A stretch of DNA of 64,000 bases from Mytilus trossulus (taxonomy: Eukaryota): assembly GCF_036588685.1 (NCBI RefSeq), contig NC_086373.1, positions 41,664,001 to 41,728,000 of the forward strand, read 5' to 3'. The stretch's first letter is position 1, and each line of letters opens with the position of its first letter. The position numbers and the translations under genes were made by a program. The notes beneath the pieces are model-generated. The model ran no database searches and was not told where the DNA came from. It worked only from the letters and a program-made list of their open reading frames with translations. Below are positions 26,631-61,879 of this stretch, piece by piece.

Positions 26631-26700
26631 TGATGAGTCTTATGAGGACGAAACACGCGTCTTGCGTACTAAATTATAATGCTGGTACCTTTGATAACTA
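26631..26700 (+). mobile_element. Retrozyme fragment with broken hammerhead
   Basis: TGATGAGTCTTATGAGGACGAAACACGCGTC...GGTACCTTTGATAACTA; the 5' strand of stem I is missing. Confidence 0.75.
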
Positions 26701-30120: not shown

Positions 30121-31099
30121 ATGCTGAGATTCCAGACCATTTTCTTTTTGATTGCATTGACCACAATGACAGTAGCCGGTAAGTACACTGTCAAATTTGT
30201 GCTTCTGCAAGTTTACAGGCTGTTTTAATAGAAGTGTTAAGGGTGTTAAGATACAAACATCTGAATGCCTTACTATCGATAAATCTTCAAAAAATTACGA
30301 TTTCAGTACTTATAAAGTTTATTTACTGAATTTACATTTTTGTCATTTTTGTTGTTTTTGCATTACTTAATTTGTGAACGTTATATAAAATGTCAGATAT
30401 ATTTATTTTACAGTCTATGCACCCACGGAAAAACATGCATTAGATAGACATGGACTGGAAAGGGTTTTGCTGGTCGAAAACACAGTTGGAAGAAACATAA
30501 ACAGGCGTCGTGGTGAGGGATCTCTTTCTGTACTGGATGTTATTGATGCAAATAGACGAGCAGGATCAAGAGGAGTTGGAACATCTCATGCAATAGGCAG
30601 TGAATTTATTACACACGGGTCATCTTCCGGTAGAGGATTGTCTGGGGCGTCTGTTCGAGGCAGGAACTCTGTATCTGGAATCATTAGAGGCTCTTCAACT
30701 GGTTTGTCTCGTGATTTATCTGACGATGATGATCATTTCACCTCTGGCAGCCGAATTGGTTCATCTGGTCTGGCTAGAAATGTGGATCTGTCTGGAAATT
30801 CACATTTGGAAACTATTGGTAGTGGCCATGGAGTGACTGGTCATTCAGGTGCAGATATTATTGACGCAATCAGTTCTGGACGAGGTGGGCGTGTTGTACT
30901 AGACACCGTTTCTGCCAGACGTAGTGGATCAGCACGTACTTCAGGTTCAGGGTTCGTTTCTCAGTCAGTGGTAGGAGGAAAAACTAATTGCAAAAATGAC
31001 TGTTTTATTGATGGAGATTGTCCAACAAACAGATACTGTGCCACCGTTAACTGTCACAGGATTTGTAGGAGAAGACTGTCTAATGGATACACACCATGA
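30121..31099 (+). CDS. Secreted Gly/Ser/Arg-rich protein with C-terminal 6-Cys WAP-like domain (copy 4, 247 aa)
   Basis: Coding exons 30121-30178 (MLRFQTIFFLIALTTMTVA) and 30414-31099; AATAAA 31152-31157. Confidence 0.9.
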
Positions 31100-39891: not shown

Positions 39892-42477
39892 TTGTAAGAT
39901 ATCAAAATATTTTGATTCATATTTTTTTTGATTTTTTTTTTGGTCTTAAATGACTTTTTTATCAGTTTAAATCTTTCAATGAAACTAATTAAATCGACTG
40001 AATAATCTTTCATCAGATGAACCTGTGGTTTGAGGCAAAAATTGGTCCTTATCGGACCTACTCCTTTGTAAACAAAATAAGGCATGCGTTTCGTTTACAA
40101 AGACTCATGTAAACATCAGACATTCCGACAGACAGCATTCAGAGAGGTCAAACTTATAAGTTGTATTATAATACAAGCACTCAGTAATGGCAAAGTATTA
40201 TGTATAGGGAAACATTAGTAAAATTCGAAATATTTGTAACCCTCACTGTGCAATTTGTGTTGCCATACACACTTTTGATTTTAATCATTACGGCATGCTA
40301 AGAAGGTCTAGTGCATACGGAATCCGTATGAGAGTTTTATATACCACTACTTAGGTTTTAAAGCTAAAATATACTACTGATATAGTATATGTTTCCTAGA
40401 AGAGAAACACATATGTGACCGCTTTTTTTTTATTCAAACCTGGATTCCTTTGATAAGGAACATTGGTGAACAAGGACATTACTAAGCTCACTTACTTCAT
40501 GGACAGATTTATTCGAACTAAAATATGATTGGATTAAAATCATCCAGAAGATAACAGATGAACAGCAAACTTGCATCTTCCAAACACTCAATGGCGCCGG
40601 CCCATTTTTTATGACTTGTCATCAATCAAAGTGATGGATATCACTCATGGAAAGATTAGAACAGTAGTTTGAATTATTTCATATTCAGGTATGGTGGGGA
40701 AAAATGAACATTTATAAAACACTATTGCTGAAAATTGCATTTACAGCAGGTCTTTAGAAGGAAACTTGCTTTTCCAGTATGTGAATAAAGGTGCTCAAAT
40801 TAAATTATATGGGTCTCTAAATTTGCACAATTTTATTTAAACTGCAGTTTATATCTAATCAAAATTATGTTGCAGGTTCTGAACATGTTTCAAAAAAACA
40901 AAAAATGCAAAAATTCTTCTAGTAAATGTTACCAAATAGCCTTGTAAGACATAAATTTAGACCAACAGCTAAAAGCTTTAAAGTGCCAACAAAAATAATC
41001 TAAAAAATGTTGTTTTGGGGCATTTTGTAAGTTGAAACAGAGGTTATATGGCATTGAAAATTAAAAGTTTTAGAGTGCCTTTTGATCAAATTTTAATGTA
41101 TTTTTCAACACAGGGCATTTTCAATTCTATTTTTCAACGTAAACTAATTAAAAAACTAATGTTATTGAAATGTGGATTCTTTCTTGATTGCAAAAATATA
41201 TATTTACTTCTAATAAAAATTAAAATGACTAAAATAGACATAATGATTGATGGGAAATAAACTAATAAACAATGTTTTTTTATAATTAAAAGTTTATAAA
41301 TTTTAAAACTGTTTCAAGCCAATTCCTGATAAACTAGTGAACTAATCTAAATTGTTGATTAATTACAGATGATTATTGGAAATTTATCAAGTACATTATA
41401 GGCCATACTTGAATACCTTTTAAATATTCATATTTATATTCATATTTCATTTTTTTAAGATCTTGCTAATCCATTAATCATTTATCTTTCAGATATAATT
41501 TACAGAATTACTTTATGTAATGTAGATCAAAAGTAATTGGCAATAAATAAATCTATCATCCTTATAAATATCAAAGAAATAATACACACATTTGTGTAAT
41601 CAATTATGATTTTAAATACTTGTGTATTAAGAATTAGATGCATATTGGAGTGGTCTACAATTATGTAAGACTGATGTAGATAGGTAATGTGGTCAATTTG
41701 ATTGGCATTTTAGGAGGTGGGGCATTGTAATTAAAAGTCCACCTTGTCTCTGATTGTTTAGTGATAATGACAGTGGTCAATCATACTAGTTGAATCAATA
41801 CCCACTTACCTAATCAAAATGTTTTTAAAAAAGCCTGCACATCAACACACATAATGACATACATTCTTGAATGAACTGCTCCAATAATATACCCAGTTTT
41901 TTCAGTTTATTTGTGTATTATGTGCACATACATGAGAACTATAGGGAACTATATTTTAGTGTGAATACATTTATTAACAGTAGCTAACCTGTCCTGTTGT
42001 TAGGGTGGGCGGTGCCTAAGTAAAGATTTAGAACAAGTTCTAATCTTTCAAAAAACTGGAATAAATGGATATTTACATGTCTGAAACACGACGTCTAAAC
42101 ACAGAAAAGTTGCAAACGTTCGTGTATTACTTTAATGCAAAGCAGGATATGCTTACCATTTCCTTCACATTTGAGGTCATCCGAATATTAGCTGGGTGAC
42201 AGTGTATGCCTTTCGTGTGTGTTAGTGTAAATTTTTGTTATTAAACATTGTTTGTTTAGAATTGTAGTTCAATGATTGCCTCAACTAATCTGTATTTCTT
42301 TTTACCGGTAATCAATTGTGTTGTAACGTTTGATTGGTCGTAGGTTTTGTCTTCTTTTATACAAAAAGGTCCTTGGTTTCATCATAAAAAAATCAACAGT
42401 GACCACTGTAGACAACAATGTTTTTTTTTAAGTTAGTGCAAAATCTTAAGTAATTGCAAAATCGAACTATTTTAATC

Positions 42478-42552
42478 AGAGCGTCACTGATGAGTCTTAT
42501 CTAGACGAAACGTGCGTCTGTTGTATTAAATAATAATCATGGTACCTTTGGT
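42478..42552 (+). mobile_element. Retrozyme fragment with hammerhead core
   Basis: GCGTCACTGATGAGTCTTATCTAGACGAAACGTGCGTC; 3' strand of stem I degenerate. Confidence 0.75.
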
Positions 42553-43120
42553 AGCAATTTACTGGTAGCGCGAAGAGCAAATCCATTACTTAATGAAATT
42601 GGAACATAAAATTCAAAAACGTTGCTTCAAATTTGGCATGTTTGGCGGGACCTATAGTTGTTAATTTCTGTGTCATTTATTCTAATTAGCAATTATACCA
42701 GATTTTTTTTTTATAACATTCTAAATATTCAGTTATCTTTGTGTAGAACATCTTTAGTTTATTTTGAAACACGATAATAATTTGTTCGTTGAATTGTTGA
42801 GAAAATGTTGCTGGGTATTGTGTAAGTATGAGTTTCCATGTGTTTAGTCTGGTAGTCTGGTGTCACTAAACTATTTATCACATACAACACATATGCGAGG
42901 TTGTTTTCTCTAGTATGAGTTCTCATGTGTCTTTCATATAGTTTCTTGTGTTTACCACATACATTACGTGTGCGAGGTGTCACTTAATTGTCTACCACAT
43001 ACAACACGTATGCAAGGTTTTTACAAGTATGAGTTCACATGTGTCTATCATAGAAGTCTGGTGTCACTAAACTGTTTACCACATACATCACATGTGCGAG
43101 GTTTTCACTAGTATGTGTTA

Positions 43121-44689
43121 TCATGTGTTTATTATAGTGTCTGGTGTCTCTAAACTGTCTACCACATACACAGCATTGGTAAGATATTCACCTGCATGAG
43201 TCAGTTTCATGTGTAAAAGACAGGTACTATTGAGGCTAAACTCTTTCCCACAAACACTACATTTATAAGGTTTCTCATTTGTTAGAGTATTATGAGTACA
43301 ACTTTGAGTTTTCATGTGTATACGGACGGTGCTCTTGTCCCTAAACCCTTTTCCACATACATCACATGTGTAAGGTTTTTCATCTGTATGAGTTATCATG
43401 TGTATATGAAGGGATCTGATACTTCTAAAACCTTTACCACATACATCACATTTGTAAGGTGTTTCACCTGTATGTATTCTAATGTGTGTGATTAAATCCT
43501 GATTTGATTTAAACCCTTTACCACATGCATCACAAATGTAAGGTCTGTGTTGCTCACCAGTATGAGTTCTCATGTGTCTAAGACATGAACTGTTCTTGCC
43601 AAACTCCTTACCACATACATCGCATTTGTAAGGCTTATCTCCTGTATGAGTTCTCATGTGTCTAAGAAAAGAACTATTGTTGCCAAACTCTTTACCACAC
43701 ACATCGCATTGGTAAGGTTTATCACAAGTTTGAATTTTCGTGTGTGTATCAAAGTTACATTTGTCGCTTAATCCTTTATCACACGCTTCTCTGGTATTCA
43801 GATTTTCATCAGTATGAGTTTTCATGTGTCTATTATGGGAAGTGATGTCACTAAACCCTTTTTCACATACATCACATTTGTAAAATTCGTCACCAGTATG
43901 AGTTCGCATGTGTTTGTGGAAATCACTGTTGTTGTCAAATTCTCTACCACATATATCACATGTGTAACGTTTATTATATTTATAACCAGTATGAATTGTC
44001 ATGTGTTTATTGCAGTCACTTTTTCTACCAAAATGTTTACCACAAACATCACATGTGTAAGGTTTTTCACCGGTATGCATTCTTGTGTGTGCCGTTAAGG
44101 AACTGCAGATATTGAACCCTTTACCACATACATCACATATGAAAGGTTTTACACTAGTATGAGTTTTTGTATGTTTCTTATATGATTTATAGTAACCAAA
44201 TCCTTTACCACAAAAATCACATGTGTAAGGTTTTTCACGCTTATCACCTGTGTGAATTCTCATGTGTCTTATCAAGTTACTTTTGTGATTAAACCTTTGA
44301 CCACATAATTCACATGTTGTGTTACGTTTTTCATCAGTATGATTTCTTTTATGTTTTGTACAGTTTCTGGAGTTAGTAAACCCTTGACCACATACATCAC
44401 ATGTATAAAGCTTATTACCAGTATGAGTTTGTGTGTGTTTTGTTAAGGTTTTATCGAACCTAAAACTTTTACCACACACATCACATTTATAAGGTTTATC
44501 CTGTTTATCAACACTATGAATAATCATGTGTTGAAGGAAGCCTTTTTTGTCACTAAATCCTTTAACACACACATCACATGTGTAAGGTTTATCAGCAGTA
44601 TGGGTCCTTGTATGTATCGTATGAGATCTGAAGTTACTGACATCTATACCACAGACATCACATGTGTAAGTTTTTTCACCCGTATCCAT
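43121..44689 (-). CDS. Poly-C2H2 zinc-finger protein (~15 canonical + 2 degenerate fingers), copy A, 522 aa
   Basis: Repeated CxxC-x12-HxxxH with TGEKPY-type linkers; splice acceptor TTTTCAG at 44763; no effector domain visible. Confidence 0.85.
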   Translation of the reverse strand: MDTGEKTYTCDVCGIDVSNFRSHTIHTRTHTADKPYTCDVCVKGFSDKKGFLQHMIIHSVDKQDKPYKCDVCGKSFRFDKTLTKHTQTHTGNKLYTCDVCGQGFTNSRNCTKHKRNHTDEKRNTTCELCGQRFNHKSNLIRHMRIHTGDKREKPYTCDFCGKGFGYYKSYKKHTKTHTSVKPFICDVCGKGFNICSSLTAHTRMHTGEKPYTCDVCGKHFGRKSDCNKHMTIHTGYKYNKRYTCDICGREFDNNSDFHKHMRTHTGDEFYKCDVCEKGFSDITSHNRHMKTHTDENLNTREACDKGLSDKCNFDTHTKIQTCDKPYQCDVCGKEFGNNSSFLRHMRTHTGDKPYKCDVCGKEFGKNSSCLRHMRTHTGEQHRPYICDACGKGFKSNQDLITHIRIHTGETPYKCDVCGKGFRSIRSLHIHMITHTDEKPYTCDVCGKGFRDKSTVRIHMKTQSCTHNTLTNEKPYKCSVCGKEFSLNSTCLLHMKLTHAGEYLTNAVYVVDSLETPDTIINT

Positions 44690-45139
44690 TCTGAAGAGTG
44701 ATTTTTTTTTAATTGGCGTGTACGTCTTACAGACTGGTCATGTATCACATAAATGTAGATATCTGAAAACACGAAAAAATATCATTTTAACTGCAGTTAA
44801 AACAGATAAACAGAATAAACGTGTATACAAATATAAACTGCAACTGCCTGCGTTTATTTCATAAATAGAGTAACATAGCTATATTTTGTATAATGTCAGT
44901 AGCATGGGTTCGAATGAACAAAAAATTTGCGAAAGCAAATTTACAGATCTAACATTGTTGGGTTGATGTTTAGACGAGTTATATATATATATATATATAT
45001 GCAATATGCAAACATATTAAAACATAGATAGGACTAGTGATTCCGATATCGCTGATCTGTATTATCGACAATTTGTATGTATTTTTACTTTTATTGTACC
45101 GCCCTTGCGTTCCATACATTTATATAAAAGAGCCACGAC

Positions 45140-46230
45140 CACAGGTATTTGGGGAATGGACCCCCTTCTTTTTTGGACCTCACTAAAATAAAATTTTGGC
45201 GGTTTTTTTATTCATTTACAATCTTCTACAATGTATAAACATATATCAAGTCTCAACAATCCATTGCTAGTCGATTACAATAATTTTTTACTATCCATAC
45301 GAGCCCCAAGTGAAAAAAGAAGAAGGTAATTACCTTTGATGAATGACCTACTTTCACTTTGGAGGATCAGGTCAGGAAATCGATAAAAAAATCATATAAA
45401 AACTCACTTACTTTTCATATAAATTACATCCCTAGATTCCTGAGACATTTTTCTCCACGTTTAAATAGGTCACATGGTGATCTGCGGAGGTTTTGTGTTG
45501 TTTTCTGAGTTTGTTCTACAATTGTCGTCCGTTTGAACCTCAATTCACGGAAGTGAAAATACAGCGACATCTGTGTGGTCTTTTGCTATGTTGAAATAAC
45601 TCCGTTTGACTAAACTGTTCCCTGTTAACTGTTTTTTCTTTAATTTGTAAAAGACCGGCAAAACTACTTTTTTCGAATATCTCTTACCTTTTCTTATAGC
45701 TACATTGCATTCGGAACCCATCTATAAAACTGGTAAACAAAAAAAGGGAACAGTTTAGTCATACGGAGTTATTTCAACATAGCAAAAGACCACACAGATG
45801 TCGCTGTATTTTCACTTCCGTGAATCGAGGTTCAAACGGACGACAATTGTAGAACAAACTCAGAAAACAAGACACAAAACCTCCGCAGATCACCATGTGA
45901 CCTATTTAAACGTGGAGAAAAATGTCTCAGGAATCTAGGGATGTAATTTATATGAAAAGTAAGTGAGTTTTTATATGATTTTTTTATCGATTTCCTGACC
46001 TGATCCTCCAAAGTGAAAGTAGGTCATTCATCGAAGGTAATTACCTTCTTCTTTTTTCACTTGGGACTCGTATGGATAGTAAAAAAATTATTGTAATCGA
46101 CTAGCAATGGATTGTTGAGACTTGATATATGTTTATACATTGTAGAAAATTGTAAATGAATAAAAAAACACCAAAATTTTATTTTAGTGAGGTCCAAAAA
46201 AAAGGGGGGTCCATTCCCCAAATACCTGTG
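45140..46230. mobile_element. Foldback element, ~485-bp inverted arms, 8-bp TSD
   Basis: TSD GCCACGAC (45132-45139, 46231-46238); arms 45140-45623 and 45745-46230; empty site at ~57563. Confidence 0.9.
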
Positions 46231-47734
46231 GCCACGACATATCCCAGGTAACACGCATATTTATGACATTTATTGAGTATTCTTGCTTTAATTATAGCCT
46301 GGGTGTCTATATTGACACCGATAGAAATAATATAATATCTTAACATTATTGACTTACACATTTACTTGTTTCATGTAGAGATTGATATAATTAGCAATTT
46401 TTCGAACGAGTTCACAACTTGTCCTTCTATTGGTATCAAAGGCCGATAACCACAAATTTTATACCTATGGAACGTCTAAGAAATAAAACCGAAAATCATA
46501 AAAATTCCATTTTGCGTCGCAGTTATTTTGTCCATAGCAGATAAGATTGAAAAATGATGAAACAATCTAATCATCAAGAAACAAATATTTTTTATCAATG
46601 TTTTCAGTTGTCAACTGGATTTTGAACCTCCGTTCGACAGATGTTGCATGTACAGTATACACATGGATCGACATTTATAGAAAGGTTGACTTTATTAAAT
46701 AGTTTAAGCCTTGACCACTTTCATTATTTGGAAATAAAAATAGGTAATTGTTGATGAAAGTTCTATCGATTTTTTAGAGATTTGATACAGAAAAATGTAT
46801 CAAAATGACGTATTTTGTTTATGAATTTGATATACCGTGGCCATGATATATTTCGATAAAAAAAAATAACAATAGGATATATACATTCAAAACCAATGTT
46901 ATGTCAATTTACCAAAATTAGGAAGACTTAATTTAAATACACATACGAGATATCATGTGTCATAATAAAATTATATCTCGGTGAGCAATTTAAAACTATT
47001 AGAGTTTTTATAAAAAATTCTTTAACAACTTAGGTTATCATGGTTATCTCTAGGAAATGTCCAATATTCTTGAACCTGTCACAGTGTTGATCAGAGTTGC
47101 ATTTATATAACGTACGATTAGTCATTAAAGTTCAAATAGCAGTGAAATACTGAACTATGATCCCTTACACTGTAAAAACAGCGTTTAGATGTTAAACGGA
47201 TCTAAAACATGTTTAGGTCTAAACGTGTTTAGGAAAGCGTTTAGGATGAATCCCATCTAAACGGATATTTATCTAAACACATAAAACCCTAAACGTGTTT
47301 AGAATTTAAACGTGTTGCAGGGTTATTATCAGTGAATGATATCATTAAGCTAAACATTAAATGGCATCTAAACACTTCTGAAACACTTTCCTAAACACCT
47401 AAACACTTTATAATATTTCAGTACTGGTTTCACCTCAAGTTGCGATGTTTCTACATATTCAAACATATTCTGTGAAACTATGATATCTTAGATGTCTTGA
47501 AATTAACATTATTTTCAAACTTCAGTCCAACGTATGCGGAGCTTCTTTCTTAATGAGAACAAATCATATCATCTTCCCCAAATGAGTTTCCCTTTTTTGT
47601 GTTGTAAGATTATACAATTACTTTCAATTATTTTCTTATAAGTTAAGCAATTAACTGTTTATACCAGAGACATATTATATAAAAAAATCTTTTATAGTAT
47701 GTGAGTGTATTTCTCTAATTTCCGGAGTCGTTGT

Positions 47735-48202
47735 GGTGTCATACCACCAATTAAAAGTCCCTATCTGTTCAACCAAATTTTGCAAATTTCACAGCTTTCT
47801 AAATATTTTACCTTAAGTTTAACTTCATAGAAACTAGGTATATCCTGAATCGTACAGATGTCACCTTTCTGCATGCAAAATTTCAGCATACATTCAAAAT
47901 CATATAAGAAAGAAGAGAGCTTCCGAAAGGAGGTACCCCTAAAAATAACCCCTGGTTTTCGGAAATCTTAAATTAGTATACTATGGAGCGCATTAATCCT
48001 CAATTTTTAATGAAAACTCATTGACAGGTAAATTTTGGCTCAAAATGGTCTTAATATATTTCTCTTTTGACAAAAGTTTCATTTCTGTAAATTTGTTGGT
48101 TAGTTTAGGTGAACGATGACATCAAATGCACTATTTTTTGTCCGAGTAGACCTATTTTCACATACGTTCTAAATTTGAAGGAGTAATTGGTGGTATGACA
48201 CC
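47735..48202. mobile_element. Nested MITE, 19-bp perfect TIR, TSD TTGT
   Basis: TTGT-GGTGTCATACCACCAATTA...TAATTGGTGGTATGACACC-TTGT. Confidence 0.85.
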
Positions 48203-48797
48203 TTGTCCGAATGTGGTCTTATATTAATTAACGAACAGAGTTATCTATCGTTGTAATTTGATACGGACGCCTTCGGACCCGCCAAAGACAAACAACATTT
48301 AAAACAATGGATCATATCTATCAAGCATATATATATATCTTTTGACGATGCAACAGATACAGAACTTCATATTAGAATATTGACGGAATCAAAAGCCATC
48401 TTAACAGTTATTTTAGCAGCGGAAGGTAAGCCATATCCAGATTTCGTAAAAAGGGGGAGGGGCACAAACCATAATTTAACAGACTAATTAAAGGAATATG
48501 TGCGTTAAACTGTTAACCTATGCTATTTCAAGTCCACTATTGTGGTATGAATCATATAATATACACACATACTCAGTCGCAAGGACCAAGCATAAAATAA
48601 GAATGAGCTAGTTCGGAAATTTAAAATGAGATTGAATAGTCTAAACTGTGACTGTACACAGGAACATATATGTTAGATATACTGTTCCCTGCTTTACACA
48701 ATGTCATAAAAGCATAGTTTCAAGTATTCTATCTTTGCAAGGAATAATTTCCCAATGGCTTATACTGCAACATCCTTTACACAAAGTAACACTGAAA

Positions 48798-48856
48798 CTG
48801 AGACTACTATAACACATGTTATAGGACTACTATAACACATGTTATAGTAGTCTCAG
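48798..48856. mobile_element. 59-bp hairpin mini-element with 7-bp TSD
   Basis: ACTGAAA-CTGAGACTACTATAAC...GTTATAGTAGTCTCAG-ACTGAAA. Confidence 0.7.
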
Positions 48857-51771
48857 ACTGAAATTATAGTTTCACTTCACCTTGTCAAAGAAAAACAAAG
48901 AATACCAAAAGGACATTCAAACTCATTACTTGAAAATAAACTGACCACGTCATGGCTAAAAAGTTGAAAATAAACTGAAATTCAAACTCCAATGTCAAAA
49001 ATAAAGTGTCAAGTTGTTCTTTTTTATTTAAACCTATTATAATTATTTGTATGTATGCATTTATAGGACTGTGACACTGAAGTGGGAATGAAATTTTAAG
49101 AGCTAGAATAAATCCATACCATAGATCAAATTGAAGAACAGATTAGGAAGAGAGGAAAGGATGACTTAATTTCAAGAGCAGATGTAAGTAAAAATATTAG
49201 AGTATATTATTAAGTTGCCAACAGAACTATAATATGATTGAAATAGTTATCAAGGGTACCAGGATAATAATTTAGTTTTGAAAAATGGAGGTTAAATCAT
49301 TCTCTTATATTTATCCTGTTGAATAGGTAAAAAATGGTCAATTTAAAAAAAAAATATTCATAATATTACTATTAGGATAGAATAGGAAAAACAGGCTGCA
49401 GTTCTCAGAAATCAAGGATTTTGTTTTATAATATAAAAAAAAACTTGCATGCTTGTTTGCTCTATATATTGTTCCCTTTGATTTATTTGTCTTTTGATGT
49501 ATACATTTGTACAAGGTGAAAAGTATTGTCTTTTTAACTACAATTTGTATTTTTCTTTTGTAAAAATCTTTTTCAAGAAGCTTGTTTAATGTTTTTTAAT
49601 AAACATGATCTAAGAATAAGTGACTGTTGCATACAATTGTACATGAAGGTTTAATTTTTTCATTTCAGGATACAAAAGTTCACCTGACAACTGAAAAGAA
49701 ACTGCACACCAAGAGCCTTTATCATTCAAAAGAAGATTGTTCCGCAATGAAAAATTCCTGTATGATAGGAGATGGACTAACAATTTCTATTTGTTGAGGA
49801 TAAAAATCATAAAATTTTATAATTGTATTTTTTGTTTGCTTTAGTGAGACTTAGAAAAATAAATTATTGAACTAATTTGAATAGATTGTATGTTATGTTT
49901 AACTAAGACTGGATCAGAAAAAAACAAAAGAACCAGACTCTAAGTTGTATAAAAGGTGGAAGGTCCATAAAACGTTAAAAAAATCAAACACTTGACTACA
50001 TAAACAATCAAAAGGAACGGGAAAAAAAGTCATATTCCTGACTTGGTACAGGCTTTTCCTTTATAAATAATGGAGGATTAAACTTTGTCTAATTGTTTAC
50101 AGACTTTTCAAAACTTGGTCCAATTGTTTACAGACTTTACTGAACTTGGTCGTATTGTTTACAAACTTTTCTTTGGTCTCCAGGAAAAATAAAATATGTA
50201 AACCTATTATTGTTAATATTATTATTATCATTACTGAAGTTTTCCAGCTTTAATATACTATATAGACAAGTCAAAATGTTTTATGATGGTAAAAATCATT
50301 GCAAGAACATGAAAGCAGAAATATTCACGTGTATTATATATTCTACAATACAGTGTGGACTAATCAACCTGTAGTGCTGTACCACACAAGTAGTTCCTGT
50401 GAAATCAAAGTACTAGTAGGTTTACCGTTGGAAGGTCTAAACACAATATATTTCTAAACATATAACATCTAAACACTTGTTAAAATCTAAACATGTTTAG
50501 ATGCTAAACGCGTTTCAAAACGTACACAGAAAAAGTGTTTAGATAGGTGTTTAGGATCTAAATACTGTTTTTGTAATACATAAACCGAGTGGTCGCTGCC
50601 CTTCCCTTTTAATTTCTATTTTACTCCAAACTGATCGTGTCGTAGATTTATCTATAAGTCAAATATACATACATATATATACTATTAATGACAACAATAG
50701 AGCAGTATGCAGAAAGTCTATAATTATTATGTATGCATGGTACATTTTTAGGCAGCTAAGCTGTCTTATGCGAGCACCCTTGTGTTCTACCCAATTAAAT
50801 GCTGAAATATGTGCCATAATGATTGTTATTATCTAGCATGATCATGTTATGTTATTTATAACTAATTGGACAGCTTTTTCATACTTTTAATTCTTGATTA
50901 CAAAAAATATGACCAGAAAAACCTTAAATGATCGTCGATTTATCCCAAAGTTTTGAAGTTGCACATAGGAAGAAGGGCACATTAGGAATCTTTATGTAGT
51001 TTATTATCCCCTGAGATTTTGGCTAAGCTGTCAAAGAACAAATGTATGAAATGTTTAATCGCCGAAAATCTCTAAAGACGAGTAGTTAAGATTTCCAAAA
51101 TGGCAAAAGTCGTAGGAATATTGTTCGTCGTCAACTGCGTCAGTAGTCTTAAAATAAGTTCCACTGTTCATCATGTTCATGCTGTTGGCGGCAATTTTAA
51201 CTTATTAGACGACATTTTTGTATCTTTTCAATTTGGTGGCAGGGGTTCAAATTAGCGGTTGTCCGAGGTCTGCGACCTTCCACTTTTGCAGTCGGACTTT
51301 CGACTTGGTAAATAGCTACGCTCGACATGCCCGACTTTAGAGGAAATAAAAAAAAAACTTTGCAAATCTTTTTACAAGTCTCCTAAAAAACGATCTCAAA
51401 ACTTTTGTTTTGCATAATTATTCATGACAGCGACGTTCATTTGGTTCAACCGCTAGTTTTATACAGAAAATCGCCGACAAATAATGTGTAAATTCGAGTA
51501 AAATCGTATCTGACTTGAACCTTTAGTGAAATTGTAAGGGGGGCCCAACAAATCAGTAGGGTAAAATTAGGATTGTTACAACAGTTTTCGCCCTTCGTTT
51601 AACGTTAGACAGAAAATGTATCCGCAAAACAACGTTTCCAATACGTACCAGTAATTTGTTTACTCGACTGTGACCAATTAATATACACGTCAATTGAATT
51701 GCATAATGATCATTCTAACTAGTTCATCGAAACTAAAATGACATCACGACAGGAATCTATTGAAAAACGCC

Positions 51772-52134
51772 CATATATCATCTGGCAGCAGAATTATAAC
51801 ATCTGACCTGAGAAGAAATTATGATATCTCTCGCAGTTCTTATTTGGAAACCATAGGTAGTGGCCGTGGAGTGTCTTGTTATTTCGGTTTTTATATTCTA
51901 GACGCATTCAGCTCTGGACGAGGTGTGCGTGTTGAACTAGACACTGTTTCTGCCAGACGTAGTGTATCAGGTCGTACTTCTGGTTCAGGACTCGTTTCTC
52001 GGTCAGTATTAGATGGTAAAACTGATTGCAAAAATGACTGTTTTAGTGATGGAGATTGTCTAACGATTAAAAATTGTGCTTCTCTTAATTGTCACATGAT
52101 TTTTAGAAGAAGACCGTCTAATTGCACAGGATGA
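51772..52134 (+). pseudogene. 3' fragment of a copy-2-type gene (copy 5)
   Basis: Homology starts abruptly at HISSGSRI. The last Cys is lost (HMIF). No signal exon or acceptor nearby. Similarity to the copy 2 3' flank continues to ~52310. Confidence 0.85.
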
Positions 52135-53417
52135 AAAGCCTTTCTCCGAAATCCAGACTTTGAAATCTTATTTATATCTTTTATACAATAAAATTTTGCA
52201 ATCATTTTGTGTTACTAGTGAGAATTTCGTAAATACATCATAAAATATTGATAATTCAGGCTGAAAAACAAACTTTTAAGTAATCAGAAAAAAATGCAAC
52301 AACAAACAGACATATTCCCGTTTGAATGCTTTTATACTAGTAAATTTGGGGCCCTATATAGCTTGTTGTTTGGTGTGAGCCAAGGCTTCGTGTTGAAGGC
52401 GGTACATTGACATATAATGGTTTGCTTTGATAAATTGTTATTTGGATGGAGAGTTGTCTCATTGGCACTCATACCACATCTTCATATATATATATAAAAA
52501 CGTAAACATAAAATAACTACTAGCAAAAAAAATAAAGAAAAATAGAAAGTTAAATGGCAAGCAAAACCTCCTGCTTATATAACCTCGTTTCCGTCTAAAA
52601 TTGAAGTGACCGCAATTGTGTTCAGTCTTAATATTTGAATGTAAGTAGTATTTGATGATGGTTGCTAGTGAACACGGATGCGGCTACTTTCATTTTTGAC
52701 AAAACCATATAAAAGTGACATATTACATGTATTTTGTCATATTTGATAAATTTGACATATTTAAGCTTGGATTTGATCGTCTTAAATGACTACATCAGTT
52801 TAAATCTTTCAATTAATTAATTTAATCGACTGAAGAATCCATAATCCTTAATCTTTCATCAGATGAACCTGTAGTTTGAGGCCAACATTGTAAAGAAAGA
52901 CTCGCTCATGTTACCATCAGACATTCCGACAAAAAAAGAATTCAGAGAGTTCAAACTAATTATCATTTTGATACAGGCACTCATTAATGGCAAAGGATTA
53001 TGAACAGGGAAACATTTATATAATTGGCCATATTTTTAACACTCACTGTGCAATTTGTGTTGCCATACACACTTTTAATTTTAATCATTATGACACATAT
53101 GTCAGCGCTTTTTATTCAAACCACTATTCCCTTGATAAGGAACATTGGTGAACAAGGATGTTACTAAGCTCACATCCTTCAATGAAGTTCATGAAGTCAA
53201 TGAAATTCATAGCGAAATTATTTTATATTTATAAAAGAAGACCTCGAATGGTTATTAATTACCGAGGTGAAATAAATATAATTTTCAATTTTCTTTAAAT
53301 AATTCATCTAGGTAACCAGTAAATTTTACATAATCCTATCTGAACCAGTAACATGCAGAGTTATCGAACGTTATAATGACTGTAATAGTTGCATATGTAT
53401 ATTTTTGGTATTATATA

Positions 53418-53585
53418 AACTCATCATAGATACCATAAACTTTATATATACGCCAGACGCGCGTTTCGTCTACAAAAGAATCATCAGTGACGCTCGAATC
53501 AACATATGTTAACAGGCCAAATAAAGTACGAATTTAGTTGAAGACCATTGAGGAACAACAATTCATAAATGTTTTGCAAAATACA
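53418..53585 (-). mobile_element. Retrozyme fragment (variant subfamily) with hammerhead
   Basis: Minus strand GCGTCACTGATGATTCTTTTGTAGACGAAACGCGCGTCTGGCG at ~53450-53493; first stem II pair broken. Confidence 0.75.
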
Positions 53586-53629: not shown

Positions 53630-54258
53630 CATGCGTGTCTATTTCAGTGTCTGGTGTCACTGAACTATTTACAACATACAACACATTTGTGAGATTTTCT
53701 ATAGTATGAGTTTTTATGTGTCTATTTCAGTGTCTGGTGTCACTAAACGACTAACCACGTACAACACATTTGCGAGCTTTACACCAGTATGAGTTCTCAT
53801 GTGTCTATTTCAGTGTCTGGTGTCACTAACCTATTCACCACATACAACGCATTAGCGAGGTTTTCTATATTATGAGTTCTCATATATGTCTTTCATATAG
53901 TTTCTTGTGTTGACCACATACATCACATATGCGAGGTGTCCGGTGTCACTCAAGTTGCAACTGTCTACCACATACAACACATGTGCAAGGTTTTTACCAG
54001 ATTGAGTTTACATGTGTCTATCATAGAGTCTGGTGTCACTTAACTGTTTACAACACAAACACTGTCAGATGCAAGGTTTTCACCAGTAAGAGTTCTCATG
54101 CGTCTATCATAGTGTCTGGCGTCACTGAACTGTTTACCCAAACAACACATGTGCGAGGTGTTCACAAGTATGAGCCCTTATGAGTGTATCATAGTGTCCG
54201 GTGTCACTAAACTATTTACCGTTACAACACATGTGCGAGTTTTCATTAGTGTGAGTTA
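53630..54258 (-). repeat. ~83-bp tandem repeat derived from frameshifted zinc-finger units (paralog ~42830-43120)
   Basis: GTGTCTGGTGTCACT recurs at 53647, 53730 and 53813; each unit retains CxxC/HTxE-like codons out of frame. Confidence 0.75.
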
Positions 54259-55827
54259 TCATTTGTCTTTTATCTTGTCTGGCGTCACTAAACTGTCTAC
54301 CACATACACAGCATTGGTAAGATATTCACCTGCATGAGTCAGTTTCATGTGTAAAAGACAGGTACTATTGAGGCTAAACTCTTTCCCACAAACACTACAT
54401 TTATAAGGTTTCTCATTTGTTAGAGTATTATGAGTACAACTTTGAGTTTTCATGTGTTTACGGACGTTGCTCTTGTCCCTAAATCCTTTTCCACATACAT
54501 CACATGTGTAAGGTTTTTCATCTGTATGAGTTATCATGTGTATATGAAGGGATCTGATACTTCTAAAACCTTTACCACATACATCACATTTGTAAGGTGT
54601 TTCGCCTGTATGTATTCTAATGTGTGTGATTAAATCCTTATTTGATTTAAACCCTTTACCACATGCATCACAAATGTAAGGTCTGTGTTGCTCACCAGTA
54701 TGAATTCTCATGTGTCTAAGACATGAACTGTTCTTGCCAAACTCCTTACCACATACATCGCATTTGTAAGGCTTATCTCCTGTATGAGTTCTCATGTGTC
54801 TAAGAAAAGAACTATTGTTGCCAAACTCTTTACCACACACATCGCAGTTGTAAAGTTTATCACAAGTTTGAATTTTCGTGTGTGTATCAAAGTTACATTT
54901 GTCGCTTAATCCTTTATCACACGCTTCTCTGGTATTCAGATTTTCATCAGTATGAGTCTTCATGTGTCTATTATGGGAAGTTATGTCACTAAACCCTTTT
55001 TCACATACATCACATTTGTAAAATTCGTCACCAGTATGAGTTCGCATGTGTTTGTGGAAATCACTGCTGTTGTCAAATTCTCTACCACATATATCACATG
55101 TGTAACGTTTATTATATTTATAACCAGTATGAATTGTCATGTGTTTATTGCAGTCACTTTTTCTACCAAAATGTTTACCACAAACATCACATGTGTAAGG
55201 TTTTTCACCGGTATGCATTCTTGTGTGTGCCGTTAAGGAACTGCAGATATTGAACCCTTTACCACATACATCACATATGAAAGGTTTTACACTAGTGTGA
55301 GTTTTTGTATGTTTCTTATATGATTTGTAGTAACCAAATCCTTTACCACAAAAATCACATGTGTAAGGTTTTTCACGTTTATCACCTGTGTGAATTCGCA
55401 TGTGTCTTATCAAGTTACTTTTGTGATTAAACCCTTGGCCACATAATTCACATGTTGTGTTACTCTTTTCATCAGTATGATTTCTTTTATGTTTTGTACA
55501 GTTTCTGGAGTTAGTAAACCCTTGACCACATACATCACATGTGTAACGCTTATTACCAGTATGAGTTCGTGTGTGTTTTGTTAAGGTTTTATCGAACCTA
55601 AAACTTTTACCACACACATCACATTTATAAGGTTTATCATGTTTATCAACACTATGAATAATCATGTGTTGAAGGAAGCCTTTTTTATCATTAAATCCTT
55701 TAACACACACATCACATGTGTAAGGTTTATCAGCAGTATGGGTTCTTGTGTGTATCGTATGTGATCTGAAGTTACTGAAATCTATCCCACATACATCACA
55801 TGTGTAAGTTTTTTCACCCGTATCCAT
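54259..55827 (-). CDS. Poly-C2H2 zinc-finger protein, copy B, 522 aa from the MDTGEK ATG
   Basis: Near-identical paralog of 43121-44689. Acceptor at 55902, so the ORF-track start at 55911 lies in the intron. Confidence 0.85.
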   Translation of the reverse strand: MDTGEKTYTCDVCGIDFSNFRSHTIHTRTHTADKPYTCDVCVKGFNDKKGFLQHMIIHSVDKHDKPYKCDVCGKSFRFDKTLTKHTRTHTGNKRYTCDVCGQGFTNSRNCTKHKRNHTDEKSNTTCELCGQGFNHKSNLIRHMRIHTGDKREKPYTCDFCGKGFGYYKSYKKHTKTHTSVKPFICDVCGKGFNICSSLTAHTRMHTGEKPYTCDVCGKHFGRKSDCNKHMTIHTGYKYNKRYTCDICGREFDNSSDFHKHMRTHTGDEFYKCDVCEKGFSDITSHNRHMKTHTDENLNTREACDKGLSDKCNFDTHTKIQTCDKLYNCDVCGKEFGNNSSFLRHMRTHTGDKPYKCDVCGKEFGKNSSCLRHMRIHTGEQHRPYICDACGKGFKSNKDLITHIRIHTGETPYKCDVCGKGFRSIRSLHIHMITHTDEKPYTCDVCGKGFRDKSNVRKHMKTQSCTHNTLTNEKPYKCSVCGKEFSLNSTCLLHMKLTHAGEYLTNAVYVVDSLVTPDKIKDK

Positions 55828-56036
55828 TCTGAAGAGTGATCTTTTTTTAAATTGGCGTGTACGTCTTACAGACTGGTCATGTATCACATAAATGTAGATA
55901 TCTGAAAACACGAAAAAATATCATTTTAATTGCAGTTAAAACAGATAAACAGAATAAACGTGTTTACAAATATAAAAACTGCAACTGCCTGCGTTTATTT
56001 CATAAATAGAGTAACATAGCTATATTTTGTATAATG

Positions 56037-56147
56037 TCAGTAGCATGGGTTCGAATCCCGGAGAGGGATGAACAAAAAATTTGCGAAAGCAAATTTACAG
56101 ATCTAACATTGTTGGGTTGATGTTTAGACGAGTTGTATATATATATA
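56037..56147 (+). mobile_element. 5'-truncated tRNA-related SINE with (TA)n tail (paralog 44896-45000)
   Basis: B box GGTTCGAATCCC at ~56048-56059; ends in TA repeats; the paralog has a short deletion through the B box. Confidence 0.55.
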
Positions 56148-57408
56148 CCTGTATATTGACACCGAAGGTTTGTGGCACAACATCCTGTCCACAAGTTAAC
56201 ATTTTTTTTTCTTTCTGTGACGTATTAAATTTATATGAGAATCCATTTTGTTACATCTTGTGATCAATTTTATTTGGCAATCGCCAATGGCAGTCAGCAG
56301 GGTTAAAGAACATCAGTTGTTCGACCTGTTAGTCAAATGCGTTTTGTTTAAATATACTTTTTCACTCTTTTGGTCTTTAGGAAAATGTTGTTTGTGCTGT
56401 TTTTAGACCCTTCTACAACGAAATTTGTTTGACATGCACACGTATAAAAATTGCGGTTTTTATCCAACGCAATCATAGGTTTGAACGTAGTTTTCAATTT
56501 AGACTCGTTTATATATATATATAAAAAAAAAATTTCTTTCTGTGACGTATTAAATTTATATGAGAATCCATTTTGTTACATCTTGTGATCAATTTTATTT
56601 GGCAATCGCCAATGGCAGTCAGCAGGGTTAAAGAACATCAGTTGTTCGACCTGTTAGTCAAATGCGTTTTGTTTAAATATACTTTTTCACTCTTTTGGTC
56701 TTTAGGAAAATGTTGTTTGTGCTGTTTTTAGACCCTTCTACAACGAAATTTGTTTGACATGCACACGTATAAAAATTGCGGTTTTTATCCAACGCAGTCA
56801 TAGGTTTGAACGTAGTTTTCAATTTAGACTCGTTTATATTTTTTGTTTGGGCATGTATCATATTTTCCCTCCGGTTTATATGATCCGTTCATCCTATATA
56901 TTGACTCTTAAAATTCAAGAGTTAATCTAAAAATGAGGGTACTTTCTCTAAAATTGAGGGTACTTTTTATATGGCCTTCCAAATACCGTTTCGATCCTTA
57001 ACATCACTGAAGAGACATTTATTGTCGAAATCCGGATATGGTGTACTAAAGAAATATTGACACCGAATGTTTGTGGCACAACATCCTGTCCACAAGTTAA
57101 CAATTTTTTTTCTTTCTGTGACGTATTAAATTTATATGAGAATCCATTTTGTTACATCTTGTGATCAATTTTATTTGGCAATCGCCAATGGCAGTCAGCA
57201 GGGTTAAAGAACATCAGTTGTTCGACCTGTTAGTCAAATGCGTTTTGTTTAAATATACTTTTTCACTCTTTTGGTCTTTAGGAAAATGTTGTTTGTGCTG
57301 TTTTTAGACCCTTCTACAACGAAATTTGTTTGACATGCACACGTATAAAAATTGCGGTTTTTATCCAACGCAGTCATAGGTTTGAACGTAGTTTTCAATT
57401 TAGACTCG
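56148..57408 (+). mobile_element. Partially tandem, hammerhead-bearing insertion in a (TA)n tract (Penelope-like terminal repeat or second retrozyme family)
   Basis: Absent from the paralogous (TA)n site at ~44980-45000. Three ~300-350-bp direct repeats (~56153-56509, 56533-56838, 57054-57408), each ending AGACTCGT followed by TA-rich sequence. Confidence 0.75.
57001..57044 (+). ncRNA. Second-family minimal type I hammerhead ribozyme
   Basis: ACAUCA-CUGAAGA-GACA-UUUAU-UGUC-GAAA-UCCGG-AUA-UGGUGU: 6-bp stem I, 4-bp stem II, palindromic stem III AUCCGGAU, NUH triplet AUA. Confidence 0.75.
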
Positions 57409-60400
57409 TATATATATATATATATATATATATGCAATATGCAAACATATTAAAACATAGATAAGACTAGTGATTCCGATATCGCTGATCTGTATTATCG
57501 ACAATTTGTATGTATTTTTACTTTTATTGTACCGCCCTTGCGTTCCATACATTTATATAAATAGCCACGACATATCCCAGGTAACAAGCATATTTATTGA
57601 GTATTCTTGCTTTAATTATAGCCTGGGTGTCTATATTGACACCGATATAAATAATATAATATCTTAACATTATTCACTTACTAATTTACTTGTTTCATGT
57701 AGAGATTGATATAATTAGCAATTTTTCGAACGAGTTCACAACTTGTCCTTCTATTGGTATCAAAGGCCGATAACCACAAATTTTATACCTATGGAACGTC
57801 TGAGAAATAAAACCGGTAACGAAAATCATAAAAATTCCATTTTGCGTCGCAGTTATTTTGTCCATAGCAGATAAGATTGAAAAATGATGAAACAATCTAA
57901 TCATCAAGAAACAAATATTTTTTATCAATGTTTTCAGTTGTCAACTGGATTTTGAACCTCCGTTCGACAGATGTTGCATGTACAGTATACACATGGATCG
58001 ACATTTATAGAAAGGTTGACTTTATAATAGTTTAAGCCTTGACCACTTTCATTATTTGGAAATAAAAATAGGTAATTGTTGATGAAAGTTCTATCGATTT
58101 TTTAGAGATTTGATACAGAAAAATGTATCAAAATGACGTATTTTGTTTATGAATTTGATATACCGTGGCCATGATATATTTCGAGAAAAAAAAATTAACA
58201 ATAGGATATATACATTCAAAACCAATGTTATGTCAATTTACCAAAATTAGGAAGACTTAATTTAAATACAAATACGAGATATCATGTGTCATAATAAAAT
58301 TATATCTCGGTGAGCAATTTAAAACTATCAGAGTTTTTATAAAAAATTCTTTAACAACTTAGGTTATCATGGTTATCTCTAGGAAATGTCCAATATTCTT
58401 GAACCTGTCACAGTTTTGATCAGAGTTGCATTTATATAACGTACGATTAGTCATTAAAGTTCAAATAGCAGTGAAATACTGAACTATGATCCCTTAATAC
58501 ATAAACCGAGTGGTCGCTGCCCTTCCCTTTTAATTTCTATTTTACTCCAAATTGATCGTGTCGTAGATTTATCTATCAGTCAAATATACATACATTTATA
58601 TACTATTAATGACAACAATAGAGAAGTATGCAGAAAGTCTATAATTATTATGTATGCATGGTACATTTTTAGGCAGTTAAGCTGCCTTATGCGAGCACCC
58701 TTGTGTTCTACCCAATTAAATGCTGAAATATGTGCCATTGTTATTATCTAGCATGATGTTATGTTATTTATAACTAATTGGACAGCTTTTTCATACTTTT
58801 AATTCTTGATTACAAAAAATATGACCAGAAAAACCTTAAATGATCGTCGATTTATCCAAAAGTTTTGAAGTTGCACATAGGAAGTAGGGCCCATTAGGAA
58901 TCTTTATGTAGTTTATTATCCCCTGAGATTTTGGCTAAGCTGTCAAAGAACAAACGTATGAAATGTTTAATCGCCGAAAATCTCTAAAGACGAGAAGTTA
59001 AGATTTCCAAAATGGCAAAAGTCATAGGAATATTGTTTGTCGTCAACTGCGTAGGTAGTCTTAAAATAAGTTCCACTGTTCATCATGTTCATGCTGTTGG
59101 CGGCAATTTTAACTTATTAGACGATTTTTTGTATCTTTTCAATTTGGAGGCAGGGGTTCAAATTAGCGGTTGTCCGAGGTCTGCGACCTTCCACTTTTGC
59201 AGTCGGACTTTCGACTTGGTAAATAGCTACGCTCGACATGCCCGACTTTAGAGGAAATAAAAAAATAACTTTGCAAATCTTTTTACCAAAGTCTCCTAAA
59301 AAACGATCTCAAAACTTTTGTTTTGCATAATTATTCATGACAGCGACGTTCATTTTGTTCAACCGCTAGTTTTATACAGAAAATCGCCGACAAATAATGT
59401 GTAAATTCGAGTAAAATCGTATCTGACTTAAACCTTTAGTGAAATTGTAAGGGGGGCCCAACAAATCATTGATGTAACTTTCTCATATTGAAATGAAAAA
59501 ACTAAAAATCAATCCCCAATTTTTTTTTAATAAAATTAGATTGAAGTTAAATGGTTGCTCCCTATAATTTTTTTTAGAACGTTTATGTAATATTTACATG
59601 TATATATAATACATAAAGTGTTAATTGAAATTTCTATGACTATTTAACAGTATTCTCATGAAATATAAATATACTTAGTCTAGTAAATAGATATAGACGT
59701 AAAGTTTACACAAGGACAGTCTATAATGTGTATAGACGTTGTTTTTCCTCTATTATCTCTACTACAATTCGAGTAAATAACAAATTCAGATCTCGAGTGT
59801 GTTCGTTTTGGACATGTTTCTGTTTTTTATTTTCTAAAAACTGATTAACTGTGAATTGATTGATTTTCCCCAATTTTAGTAAGTCTTTCATTTAGAGTTG
59901 CATTATTTTTGCAAGAGACTGATCTGTAGTTACTGGAACGATTGTCTAAAATTTGTGCAATGGTCTTACAATGATTTTCTCCATGTTTTGGGGTTATTTT
60001 CCTGTTTCCTGTGAAGCGGAAAAGAAGTTATATGAAAACGTTTATTATAGCTAGAAAGATACTTCTCTAATTTTTGTGCTATTTTCACATTAATTTTTCC
60101 TTACCGGTGTGAGCAAAATATTTCTCCTCAGTAGTGAAAAAACTTTTCTCGGCAAATGATTGATTGAAATTTCATTGTGACGTTAAATTTTCTTGTTTGC
60201 TTCTGAATTTTTTACTGTGACGTCATAAAACAAAGGCGACTATGCCTGATGACGTCACATCAAAAGTTCACAGCTTTCCTCAAATCTTTGAAAAGGAAGA
60301 TAAAATCATAAGAGAAACAGATTATACCACAGTGACTGTAACTCGTGTATTACGATATTTCTCCTCTCAACAGTTAAATTTTAAGTATTTAAAAAGCTCG

Positions 60401-60613
60401 GCAAGCCTCGCGCTTTAAATATTAAAATTTATCTGTCTCCAGTGGATAAATGTCGTAATATACTTGTTGCAGTTGTGGAATCTATAATATATCTTTCAGT
60501 TGGGCATAAAATGCGAATTGTAATAATTCATCTTTGAATTAGCTGATTTTGCAGTTATTGAACTTATTCTCATCTTTATTTTCTTTTGATTAGACTCAAA
60601 GCAACTGACAGAA

Positions 60614-61879
60614 ATGAAAAGTGAAGACGCCTGTACAGGAGCAAATGAAATTTCCTGCAACGGAATATCAACTTCTTCTACGAGTGTCTCCCTTGATCGG
60701 GCAACCGGTCCAATAATGGAGGATCGCTTAGTTAGCTGTTATGACAAAGGAATTAACTATATATGTAAAGTGTGTGACAAGGAGTGTAGAAACAATGCTG
60801 ATCTAGAGGAACATATAATAACTCATACTACTGGAAATCAAGCTTTCAAATGCAAAAAGTGTAAAAAAGAGTTTGGCGCTTATAGTGTGCTACAGATGCA
60901 TTTAAAGACACACGCTAGGAGTCATATATGTGAAAAATGTGGTACAGGTTTTCGTAAGGATGATGACTTAAAGACACACTTGAAAAGTCACTCTGAAAAT
61001 AGGCCTAATGTATTTACATTTGATGTATGTGATAGAGGGTTTAATGTGTATAGGTATCTACAGACCCACATGAGAACACATACTGGAGAAAAACCTTATA
61101 AATGTGATGTATGTGGTAGAAGATTTGCTTGCAGTAATTTCAAACGAACTCACATGAGAACGCACACCGGTGAAAAACCTTATGTTTGTGATGTATGTGG
61201 AAAAAGTTGTAGCCAGCTTAGTAGTATACAGAGCCACATGAGAACACATACAGGTGATAAATCTTTTAAATGTGATGTATGTCGTAAAGTGTTTACTAAC
61301 AAATGCTGCTTGAGGAGACACACAAAAATACACACTGGGGAAAGACCTTTCAGATGTGATGTATGTGGTCATGGGTTTATTCAGAATTGTGACCTGCAGA
61401 AACATATGAGAATACATACTGGTAACGAAGATAAACTGTATAAATGTGATGTTTGTGGGAAAGGATTTACTAACAAATGGTACTTGAAGAACCACACAGC
61501 AACTCACATTGGTGAAAGACCTTCTATATGTGATATATGTGGTAATGGGTTTAGAAAAAAATGCGACATAATGAGACACATGAAAATACATACTGGTCAT
61601 GTGGATAAACAGTATAAATGTGAAATATGTGATAAAAGGTTTAGTAAGAAACAGCACTTAACAACTCACATGAGAACACATACTGGTGATAAACCGTATA
61701 CATGTGATGTATGTGGGAGAGGGTTTACTACCAGTTGGTGCTTGAAGAGACACACAACAACACACACTGGTGAAAGACCTGTCAATTGTGATATATGTGG
61801 TAAAGGTTTCATTCAGAATTGTGACTTACAAAAACACATGAGAATACATACGGGTGAAAAACCGTTTAAATGTGATTAA
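60614..61879 (+). CDS. Poly-C2H2 zinc-finger protein (12 canonical + 1 degenerate finger), 421 aa
   Basis: Tandem C2H2 fingers with TGEKP/TGERP linkers; pyrimidine tract and TAG acceptor at 60593; stop truncates a further finger (KCD*). Confidence 0.85.
   Translation: MKSEDACTGANEISCNGISTSSTSVSLDRATGPIMEDRLVSCYDKGINYICKVCDKECRNNADLEEHIITHTTGNQAFKCKKCKKEFGAYSVLQMHLKTHARSHICEKCGTGFRKDDDLKTHLKSHSENRPNVFTFDVCDRGFNVYRYLQTHMRTHTGEKPYKCDVCGRRFACSNFKRTHMRTHTGEKPYVCDVCGKSCSQLSSIQSHMRTHTGDKSFKCDVCRKVFTNKCCLRRHTKIHTGERPFRCDVCGHGFIQNCDLQKHMRIHTGNEDKLYKCDVCGKGFTNKWYLKNHTATHIGERPSICDICGNGFRKKCDIMRHMKIHTGHVDKQYKCEICDKRFSKKQHLTTHMRTHTGDKPYTCDVCGRGFTTSWCLKRHTTTHTGERPVNCDICGKGFIQNCDLQKHMRIHTGEKPFKCD

Follow-up and report, generated by a model that had tools for sequence, protein, structure and literature searches.

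A (TA)n-flanked insertion of a 576-bp hammerhead tandem repeat in Mytilus trossulus, a likely non-LTR retrozyme probably copied by a Penelope-type reverse transcriptase

Described relatives and the nature of the insertion

Retrozymes are known from animals, and their mobilisation (circular template, Penelope-like element (PLE) helper and priming) is still a model. In this published model (PMC7229834, PMC7761336 and preprint 10.64898/2026.07.22.740005; here and below, sources are cited as far as their text was available), tandem repeats with hammerhead ribozymes (HHRs) give rise to circRNA and to cDNA of more than unit length, and a PLE is the candidate partner. Most invertebrate hammerhead motifs work as monomers (review, PMC7761336). 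The 350-390 bp non-LTR retrozymes of the mussel Mytilus galloprovincialis cleave at about 0.1/min and give circles (PMC7229834). Li, Clavereau & Pollet 2026 (bioRxiv 10.64898/2026.07.22.740005) argue that non-LTR retrozymes derive from the pseudo-LTRs (pLTRs) of PLEs and report that just one of nine Xenopus dimers tested showed cleavage. Among the PLEs, Naiad and Neptune elements (Craig et al. 2021, PMC8557442) share with the locus described here a (TA)n or microsatellite target, partial tandems, 5' truncation and unclear target-site duplications (TSD). This general insertion pattern is confirmed in PMC8969392, and the available text of the killifish Neptune paper PMC12602865 contains nothing on targets.

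The window analysed here comprises 64,000 nt of Mytilus trossulus (NC_086373.1, positions 41,664,001 to 41,728,000). Its insertion at 56148-57408 lies between (TA)n tracts and is best explained as part of a 576-bp hammerhead tandem repeat, present as 1.5 units and one truncated piece. This repeat is likely a non-LTR retrozyme that entered the microsatellite through a reverse transcriptase (RT) of Penelope type. Like the M. galloprovincialis elements (PMC7229834), the unit has a canonical type I hammerhead with a 6-bp stem I, a 4-bp stem II and a short palindromic stem III, and both are low-GC, ORF-less tandem units with sense transcription and more-than-unit insertion. It differs from them in its length of 576 bp, its unrelated body and the AUA triplet of its expressed subfamily. 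The unit size exceeds the 150-450 bp given in PMC7229834 and falls within the range of the 2026 preprint, 51-972 bp; against the retrozyme reading, the unit is longer than the mussel 350-390 bp and not unusually structured. The retrozymes of the preprint are likewise tandem repeats with a type I hammerhead per unit and with dispersed monomer-type copies, including intronic ones, and its available text has no mollusc among its classes and reports no microsatellite targeting. What the preprint terms 'active' applies to the metagenome contig L001 described below and not to the insertion locus, because the latter has one ribozyme; at the family level (L001), consecutive units of the tandem repeat each bear a hammerhead. 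In the literature searched, with subscription journals and repeat databases mostly outside its scope, no ~576-bp or (TA)n-targeted mussel retrozyme is described, and the supplements of PMC7229834 and the 2026 preprint may list one. The unit represents a further retrozyme family, with a real and young copy here, within a class of mobile elements already described from animals. Its distinctive points are a ribozyme module on an unrelated body, a TA-set insertion register and a rare expressed AUA subfamily.

Table 1 Coordinates of the features in the window.
Feature	Position	Strand	Remark
Left (TA)6 of target microsatellite	56136-56147		
Extra bases at 5' junction	56148-56152	+	5 bases, absent from unit and from empty site
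Piece A, 5'-truncated copy	56153-56514	+	Unit 57054-57408 plus next 7 unit bases TTTATAT
Internal (TA)7 then 9-base A run	56510-56532		Between two inserted pieces; (TA)7 at 56510-56523
Piece B, partial upstream unit	56533-56832	+	Equals 57109-57408, 0 differences in 300
Complete 576-bp unit (piece D)	56833-57408	+	97.7% identical to L001 573-bp tandem unit
21-bp x2 internal repeat inside unit	56926-56966	+	
Type I hammerhead motif	57001-57044	+	Own type I descriptor; predicted cut 57038/57039
Stem I	57001-57006 with 57039-57044	+	6 bp, one G-U
CUGAAGA core	57007-57013	+	
Stem II	57014-57017 with 57023-57026	+	4 bp, 5-nt loop
GAA core	57027-57029	+	
Stem III, 8-nt palindrome	57030-57037	+	
A17 (triplet AUA)	57038	+	
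Right (TA)12	57409-57432		Putative priming end
Empty (TA)10 site in duplicated region	44980-44999		Matching flanks
C2H2 zinc-finger reading frame	54259-55920	-	Insertion antisense to frame
Splice-acceptor-like AG of zinc-finger frame	55902-55903	-	Insertion 246 nt upstream of it
Dispersed family-1 copies	11229-11314(-), 26609-26689(+), 42465-42546(+), 53429-53509(-)		Array end 19554
Members of Gly/Ser/Arg-rich family	3293-4021(-), 12476-13330(+), 21647-22366(-), 30389-31099(-), 51772-52314		

The hammerhead motif and its relatives

The type I descriptor gave five matches in the window, four in copies of the first hammerhead family (named family 1) and one at 57001-57044, and the same descriptor gave no match in 300 Markov shuffles, which upholds the hammerhead of the initial annotation and places it on the plus strand. 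The core is complete (C3 U4 G5 A6 N7 G8 A9, G12 A13 A14, A15.1-U16.1, H17 and three helices). Judged by its sequence, the motif is a canonical 6/4/2+tetraloop hammerhead of the retrozyme type with predicted self-cleavage. The AUA triplet is a permitted yet slower one, and the size of this effect is disputed between PMC8879150 and PMC3138052. Rfam (Hammerhead_1) matches family 1 seven times in the window and gave no match to 57001-57044, also when the local stretch was searched at E<=10. By construction, the motif is recovered with a model of 11 aligned motifs, which added the degenerate family-1 copies at 11229-11314 and 26609-26689. The folding energy of 57001-57044 by itself is ordinary (z -0.6 versus shuffles), and MFE folding did not recover stem III, with an energy not above shuffles. 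The stem III palindrome is able to pair between two copies of the motif (self-duplex -10.9 kcal/mol).

Furthermore, an alignment of 10 distinct hammerheads from three families shows 97% of cells paired and 6 of 14 pairs altered on both sides. Its covariation score was reached by 0/500 shuffles, and slid controls pair 12-48%. The count of pairs altered on both sides, taken alone, is not significant (75/500 shuffles), and independent covariation events are few because the rows come from three related families. Across the families, the stem III palindrome is preserved via a double change.

A pattern scan of metagenome contigs identified four loci (L001-L004), to none of which Rfam gave a match. 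L001 is 1221 bp long and consists wholly of 2.1 tandem 573-bp units, and each of two units has the identical motif, AUA included. L002-L004 form a 350-bp family whose motif is identical at 38/44 positions to 57001-57044 and at 32/44 to family 1. Pattern scans of viral contigs gave no match, and four bacterial matches in genome contigs (another scan gave 0) were rejected as chance, with no hammerhead core upstream. In L003, a 1.35-unit insertion of the 350-bp family at 736-1208 lies between frames that look non-mussel, and this contig may be chimeric.

The motif at 57001-57044 and that of family 1 have equal length and spacing and are identical at 29/44 positions, and a 66-nt match at 70% has E 3e-6. 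For the bodies, the observed score of the 576-bp body against the family-1 body was reached by 36/100 shuffles, and that against the L003 body by 7/100. In contrast, no shuffle in 100 reached the score between the family-1 and L003 bodies, which are homologous. Since the motif is related and the body scores match shuffles, the ribozyme with about 15-25 flanking bases is a module common to the families, with the 576-bp body alone unrelated. The initial description of the family as unrelated in sequence to family 1 is thus right for the bodies and wrong for the ribozyme. Family 1 also occurs as dispersed, truncated hammerhead copies, some with broken cores, which seem to end 30-40 nt past the cut and in this resemble the PLE 'tail'.

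Anatomy, target site and age of the insertion

The insertion has a repeat period of 576 and holds one hammerhead only. Over 56153-56507, piece A repeats 57054-57408 of piece D with 3 differences in 355; it begins 15 nt past the predicted cut and is without ribozyme. The 3' junctions of the two inserted pieces differ, since piece A ends with the seven next-unit bases and the long piece with one T. Pieces A, B and D share allele A at 57280, where T is present in 330/330 sense reads of run X21 and 99% of the depth of run X3 (see below), and therefore come from one source lineage. The unit has a GC content of 33.7% (<50%), its longest stop-free frame is 74 aa in the doubled unit, and ARAGORN found no tRNA. 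Self-pairing of the unit (z -1.3 linear, -1.4 circular) is uninformative, because family 1 of the window scores -0.1 in the same test, which does not discriminate. The inverted 5' copy of Naiad and Neptune PLEs is absent at the insertion, save for the 9-base A run, which may have arisen from the T run of the unit by micro-inversion.

The filled site has (TA)6 and (TA)12 around the insertion and the empty site has (TA)10, so that any TSD is hidden in the TA tract. The paralogous flanks differ by 2/216 and 10/926 substitutions, a divergence so low that the empty-site region may be a young paralog or an allele. With 0/300 differences between B and D against these flank values, the insertion appears to be young. 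Collectively, these data bear out the partially tandem, TA-bounded and recent insertion, absent from the paralogous site, that had been proposed from the sequence at the outset. It is improbable that the empty site arose when TA tracts recombined and lost the insertion, or that it is a tandemly assembled allele, with the insertion no younger than the duplication. Recombination between the TA tracts would leave an identical empty site, and the flank divergence of ~1%, like that of A versus D (3/355), also fits allelic haplotypes. On the other hand, about 3 differences between B and D would be expected at 1.1% (an estimate, P ~0.04), the insertion matches the subfamily expressed in X21, and an allelic empty site would also imply a recent insertion.

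The segments 42829-51555 and 54003-59468 are tandem duplicates of the zinc-finger region with ~1% flank substitution divergence. The two copies differ in insertions, with for example 45140-46230 and 47168-50573 in the left copy only, and the duplication could be young or represent two alleles assembled in tandem. A third zinc-finger frame at 60590-61879(+) is head to head with the minus-strand gene, and the 5' regions of both therefore fall in 57500-60500. The insertion was initially placed in a zinc-finger intron. The splice-acceptor-like site in the minus-strand frame is present and points to an intron, and reading of 57400-60700 identified no upstream exon of the gene. The claimed antisense orientation holds, and no hammerhead lies on the strand of the zinc-finger gene at the insertion. 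The single ribozyme and the antisense orientation suggest that the copy is probably inert. With one ribozyme it would be a probable dead end, unable to release a monomer, the zinc-finger pre-mRNA would not be cut, and for this host gene the copy is probably neutral.

Both the filled site (56040-56135) and its paralog (44900-44979) have a motif like a tRNA B box, and the next ~80 nt lead up to the (TA)n target. This stretch probably represents the 3' part of a SINE-like repeat, with the target as its tail. In the paralog, 13 bases are missing behind the B-box-like motif. The end of this repeat and that of the 576-bp unit both read TTTAGAC at a similar distance from the TA tract, possibly by chance. 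Elsewhere in the window, Gly/Ser/Arg-rich frames with a cysteine-rich tail form a dispersed multi-copy gene family in both orientations.

Transcripts, predicted ribozyme activity and proposed mobilisation

We compared four of 24 listed runs (X3, X16, X21 and X24) with 56833-57408 at 88% likeness. In the DNA-type run X3, 20,854 contigs fit the unit; copy number and target statistics are indirect estimates here. At 57038, C (AUC) accounts for ~68% of the family depth in X3 after subtraction of the 350-bp family, a summed contig depth and not a copy number; in these terms AUC is the prevalent triplet, as the initial annotation had asked of other copies. In the RNA run X21, 2257 of 8.7 million reads fit the unit, ~370 of them from the ribozyme of the 350-bp family. 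In family-specific bins, the depth is 370-487 with the first mate on the minus strand and 3-28 on the plus strand. X21 was called stranded by its read pattern, with the library orientation assumed from the usual stranded protocol, and under this protocol its RNA is the ribozyme (sense) strand and covers the whole unit. Furthermore, 159 X21 reads (70 starts) join 57408 to 56833. The other RNA run, X24, shows low depth, no strand bias and two joint reads, so strong expression is seen in one of two raw RNA runs; its triplet is mostly C17 (about 6 A versus 20 C, ~20/26). Run X16 has one 519-nt contig that crosses the joint and the ribozyme, with AUA. Tandem units elsewhere, and one RNA run that reads the unit in sense and over its joints, are thus shown.

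In X21, A17 is present in about 316/364 family sense reads (~87%). An explanation of AUA as private decay of the insertion was rejected, as AUA is also found in both L001 units, the X16 contig and these X21 reads; AUA is a subfamily trait. The form expressed in X21 is rare in X3 DNA, which comes from a different sample: 56962 G is found in 325/391 sense reads versus 0.9% of DNA depth, and 57157 A in 218/360 versus 0.25%. The alleles of most X21 sense reads are of the L001 type, which accounts for <=1% of X3 depth and hardly occurs in opposite-strand reads. RNA-RNA replication, considered because of this rarity in DNA, was rejected at the present depth, with just 1/11 and 2/40 opposite-strand reads carrying those alleles. 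At 57295, 28 X21 molecules start with the first mate on the plus strand (opposite-strand RNA), possibly at a host transcript boundary in one truncated copy.

About 364-384 family reads in X21 span the cut site. Among the ends listed, there is no pile of read ends at 57038, and the depth goes from 474 at 56998 to about 370 past the cut site, compatible with partial cutting or none. The unit joint is also present in X3 DNA, and the joined reads therefore equally fit uncut array transcripts. One could propose that the ribozyme is silent: transcription of the 576-bp repeat would give long multimers that stay uncut, and the repeat would retropose, or spread as a satellite, with no self-cleavage. 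We consider this unlikely. It would account for the missing end pile and the lack of a clear dip at 57038 and would agree with the slower AUA triplet of the expressed form, and 8/9 predicted Xenopus elements did not cleave in the 2026 preprint. However, ligated circles would likewise show no ends, the core is intact with its stem III palindrome kept through a double change, and a closely similar mussel motif does cleave (~0.1/min) and gives circles (PMC7229834).

Loose ends after 57406, among those listed, comprise 66 reads in X21, 24 in X24 and 70 contigs in X3. They open with TTTATAT and then diverge, with an agreement of 0.56-0.63, and in X21 and X24 the consensus continues with ATA and not with unit sequence. 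This suggests that a TA-like 3' end at TTTATAT is a family trait. Here, the 3' end lies at the internal TTTATAT joined to (TA)n, 370 nt past the cut, whereas copies of the family-1 and L003 types end 25-40 nt past the cut.

As a non-LTR retrozyme, the element could be mobilised as follows. The hammerhead would cut multimers into 576-nt monomers, and a host ligase would close them to circles, as in published relatives. A PLE endonuclease would nick (TA)n, and the DNA end would prime on the internal UUUAUAU of the unit, so that this stretch about 370 nt downstream of the cut, and not the ribozyme, would fix the 3' end of the copies. The RT would then have copied 876 nt (1.52 units), reading across the ribozyme site and beyond the point where it had started, for which the template must be circular or an uncut multimer. 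Piece A may stem from another priming event on this tract, with a template of the same lineage. A wider scenario is advanced tentatively and could well be wrong: a ~80-nt hammerhead module may have moved from a 350-bp mussel-type family onto an unrelated body, changing helper and target. The insertion end would be set by pairing of UUUAUAU with nicked (TA)n and would not lie beside the ribozyme, and the 1.52-unit piece would directly record how a 576-nt circRNA was reverse-transcribed by a rolling-circle route, from a rare master subfamily in which the slower AUA favours template survival. The family offers a test case for retrozyme mobilisation, with a matched empty site and a microsatellite-like priming register; further assets are an insertion longer than one unit whose overlapping parts are identical, a subfamily that is expressed yet rare in DNA, and ribozyme variants with AUA and AUC that occur naturally.

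The original assignment to a non-autonomous retroelement in the Penelope orbit fits the lack of an ORF, the tandem arrangement, the 5'-truncated pieces and the shared 3' end. The companion claim of a hammerhead as in Penelope terminal repeats fails: the minimal hammerheads of PLE pseudo-LTRs (Cervera & de la Pena 2014, PMC4209133) are also type I with a palindromic stem III, but in them stem II is 7-8 bp long, stem I is 4-5 bp long and stem III is very short or absent, against 6/4/2+tetraloop here. Because the unit is in tandem with itself and its motif is canonical and not minimal, non-LTR retrozyme is the more exact name. The expected link to an RT plus GIY-YIG ORF was not found beside the unit in the window, in L001 or in the loose ends listed, and by its sequence the unit does not appear to be an autonomous PLE, differing in this from Naiad and Neptune. 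It is quite improbable that an autonomous PLE of the Neptune type, itself with a hammerhead, has the unit as its pseudo-LTR, the insertion then being its 5'-truncated ends and not an independent retrozyme. Partial tandems, 5' truncation and microsatellite bias are PLE features, the last linked to Neptune. Unstranded and antisense reads contain an excess of the 3' 300 nt of the unit, and the 2026 preprint matches Xenopus retrozymes to pLTRs. Set against this are the head-to-tail joining of the unit with itself (L001, X16, X3 and the joint reads of X21), the canonical motif and the absence of any RT-like frame of at least 150 aa in the window. The sole frequent high-agreement loose ends among those listed lead into the 350-bp family and not into an ORF.

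For the partner of the non-LTR retrozyme, a Neptune-like helper is at least as likely as a Naiad on published features: Naiads are without canonical hammerheads, no preference is listed for the mytilid ones, and Neptune too has a link to microsatellites. A Naiad as the mobilising partner is doubtful. The hint at Naiad in the initial annotation stands in that a preference for (TA)n is frequent among Naiads, which abound in mussels (PMC8557442), and the ribozyme of a parasite need not occur in its helper. It falls short in that, in the available text of PMC8557442, Naiads have no canonical hammerheads and four mytilid Naiads have no listed target preference. Compared by eye, the unit is unlike the 3' UTR of Naiad_Mgal, Naiad_Bpla and Naiad_Mphi, and the Naiad 5' end is resembled by family 1 and not by the 576-bp unit. 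Two unit motifs were unmatched in the available supplement of PMC8557442, where line breaks may hide matches and where the matches listed for two other motifs lie in ORF sequence.

The stretch ~18128-18190, its counterpart in each family-1 unit and L003 ~860-925 resemble by eye the first ~90 nt of four published mytilid Naiad consensuses. This Naiad-like stretch starts just past the 3'-end register of the family-1 and L003 units, and the 576-bp unit seems to be without it. If true, the likeness would implicate Naiad as helper or source of the 350-bp retrozymes, despite the lack of hammerheads in Naiads.
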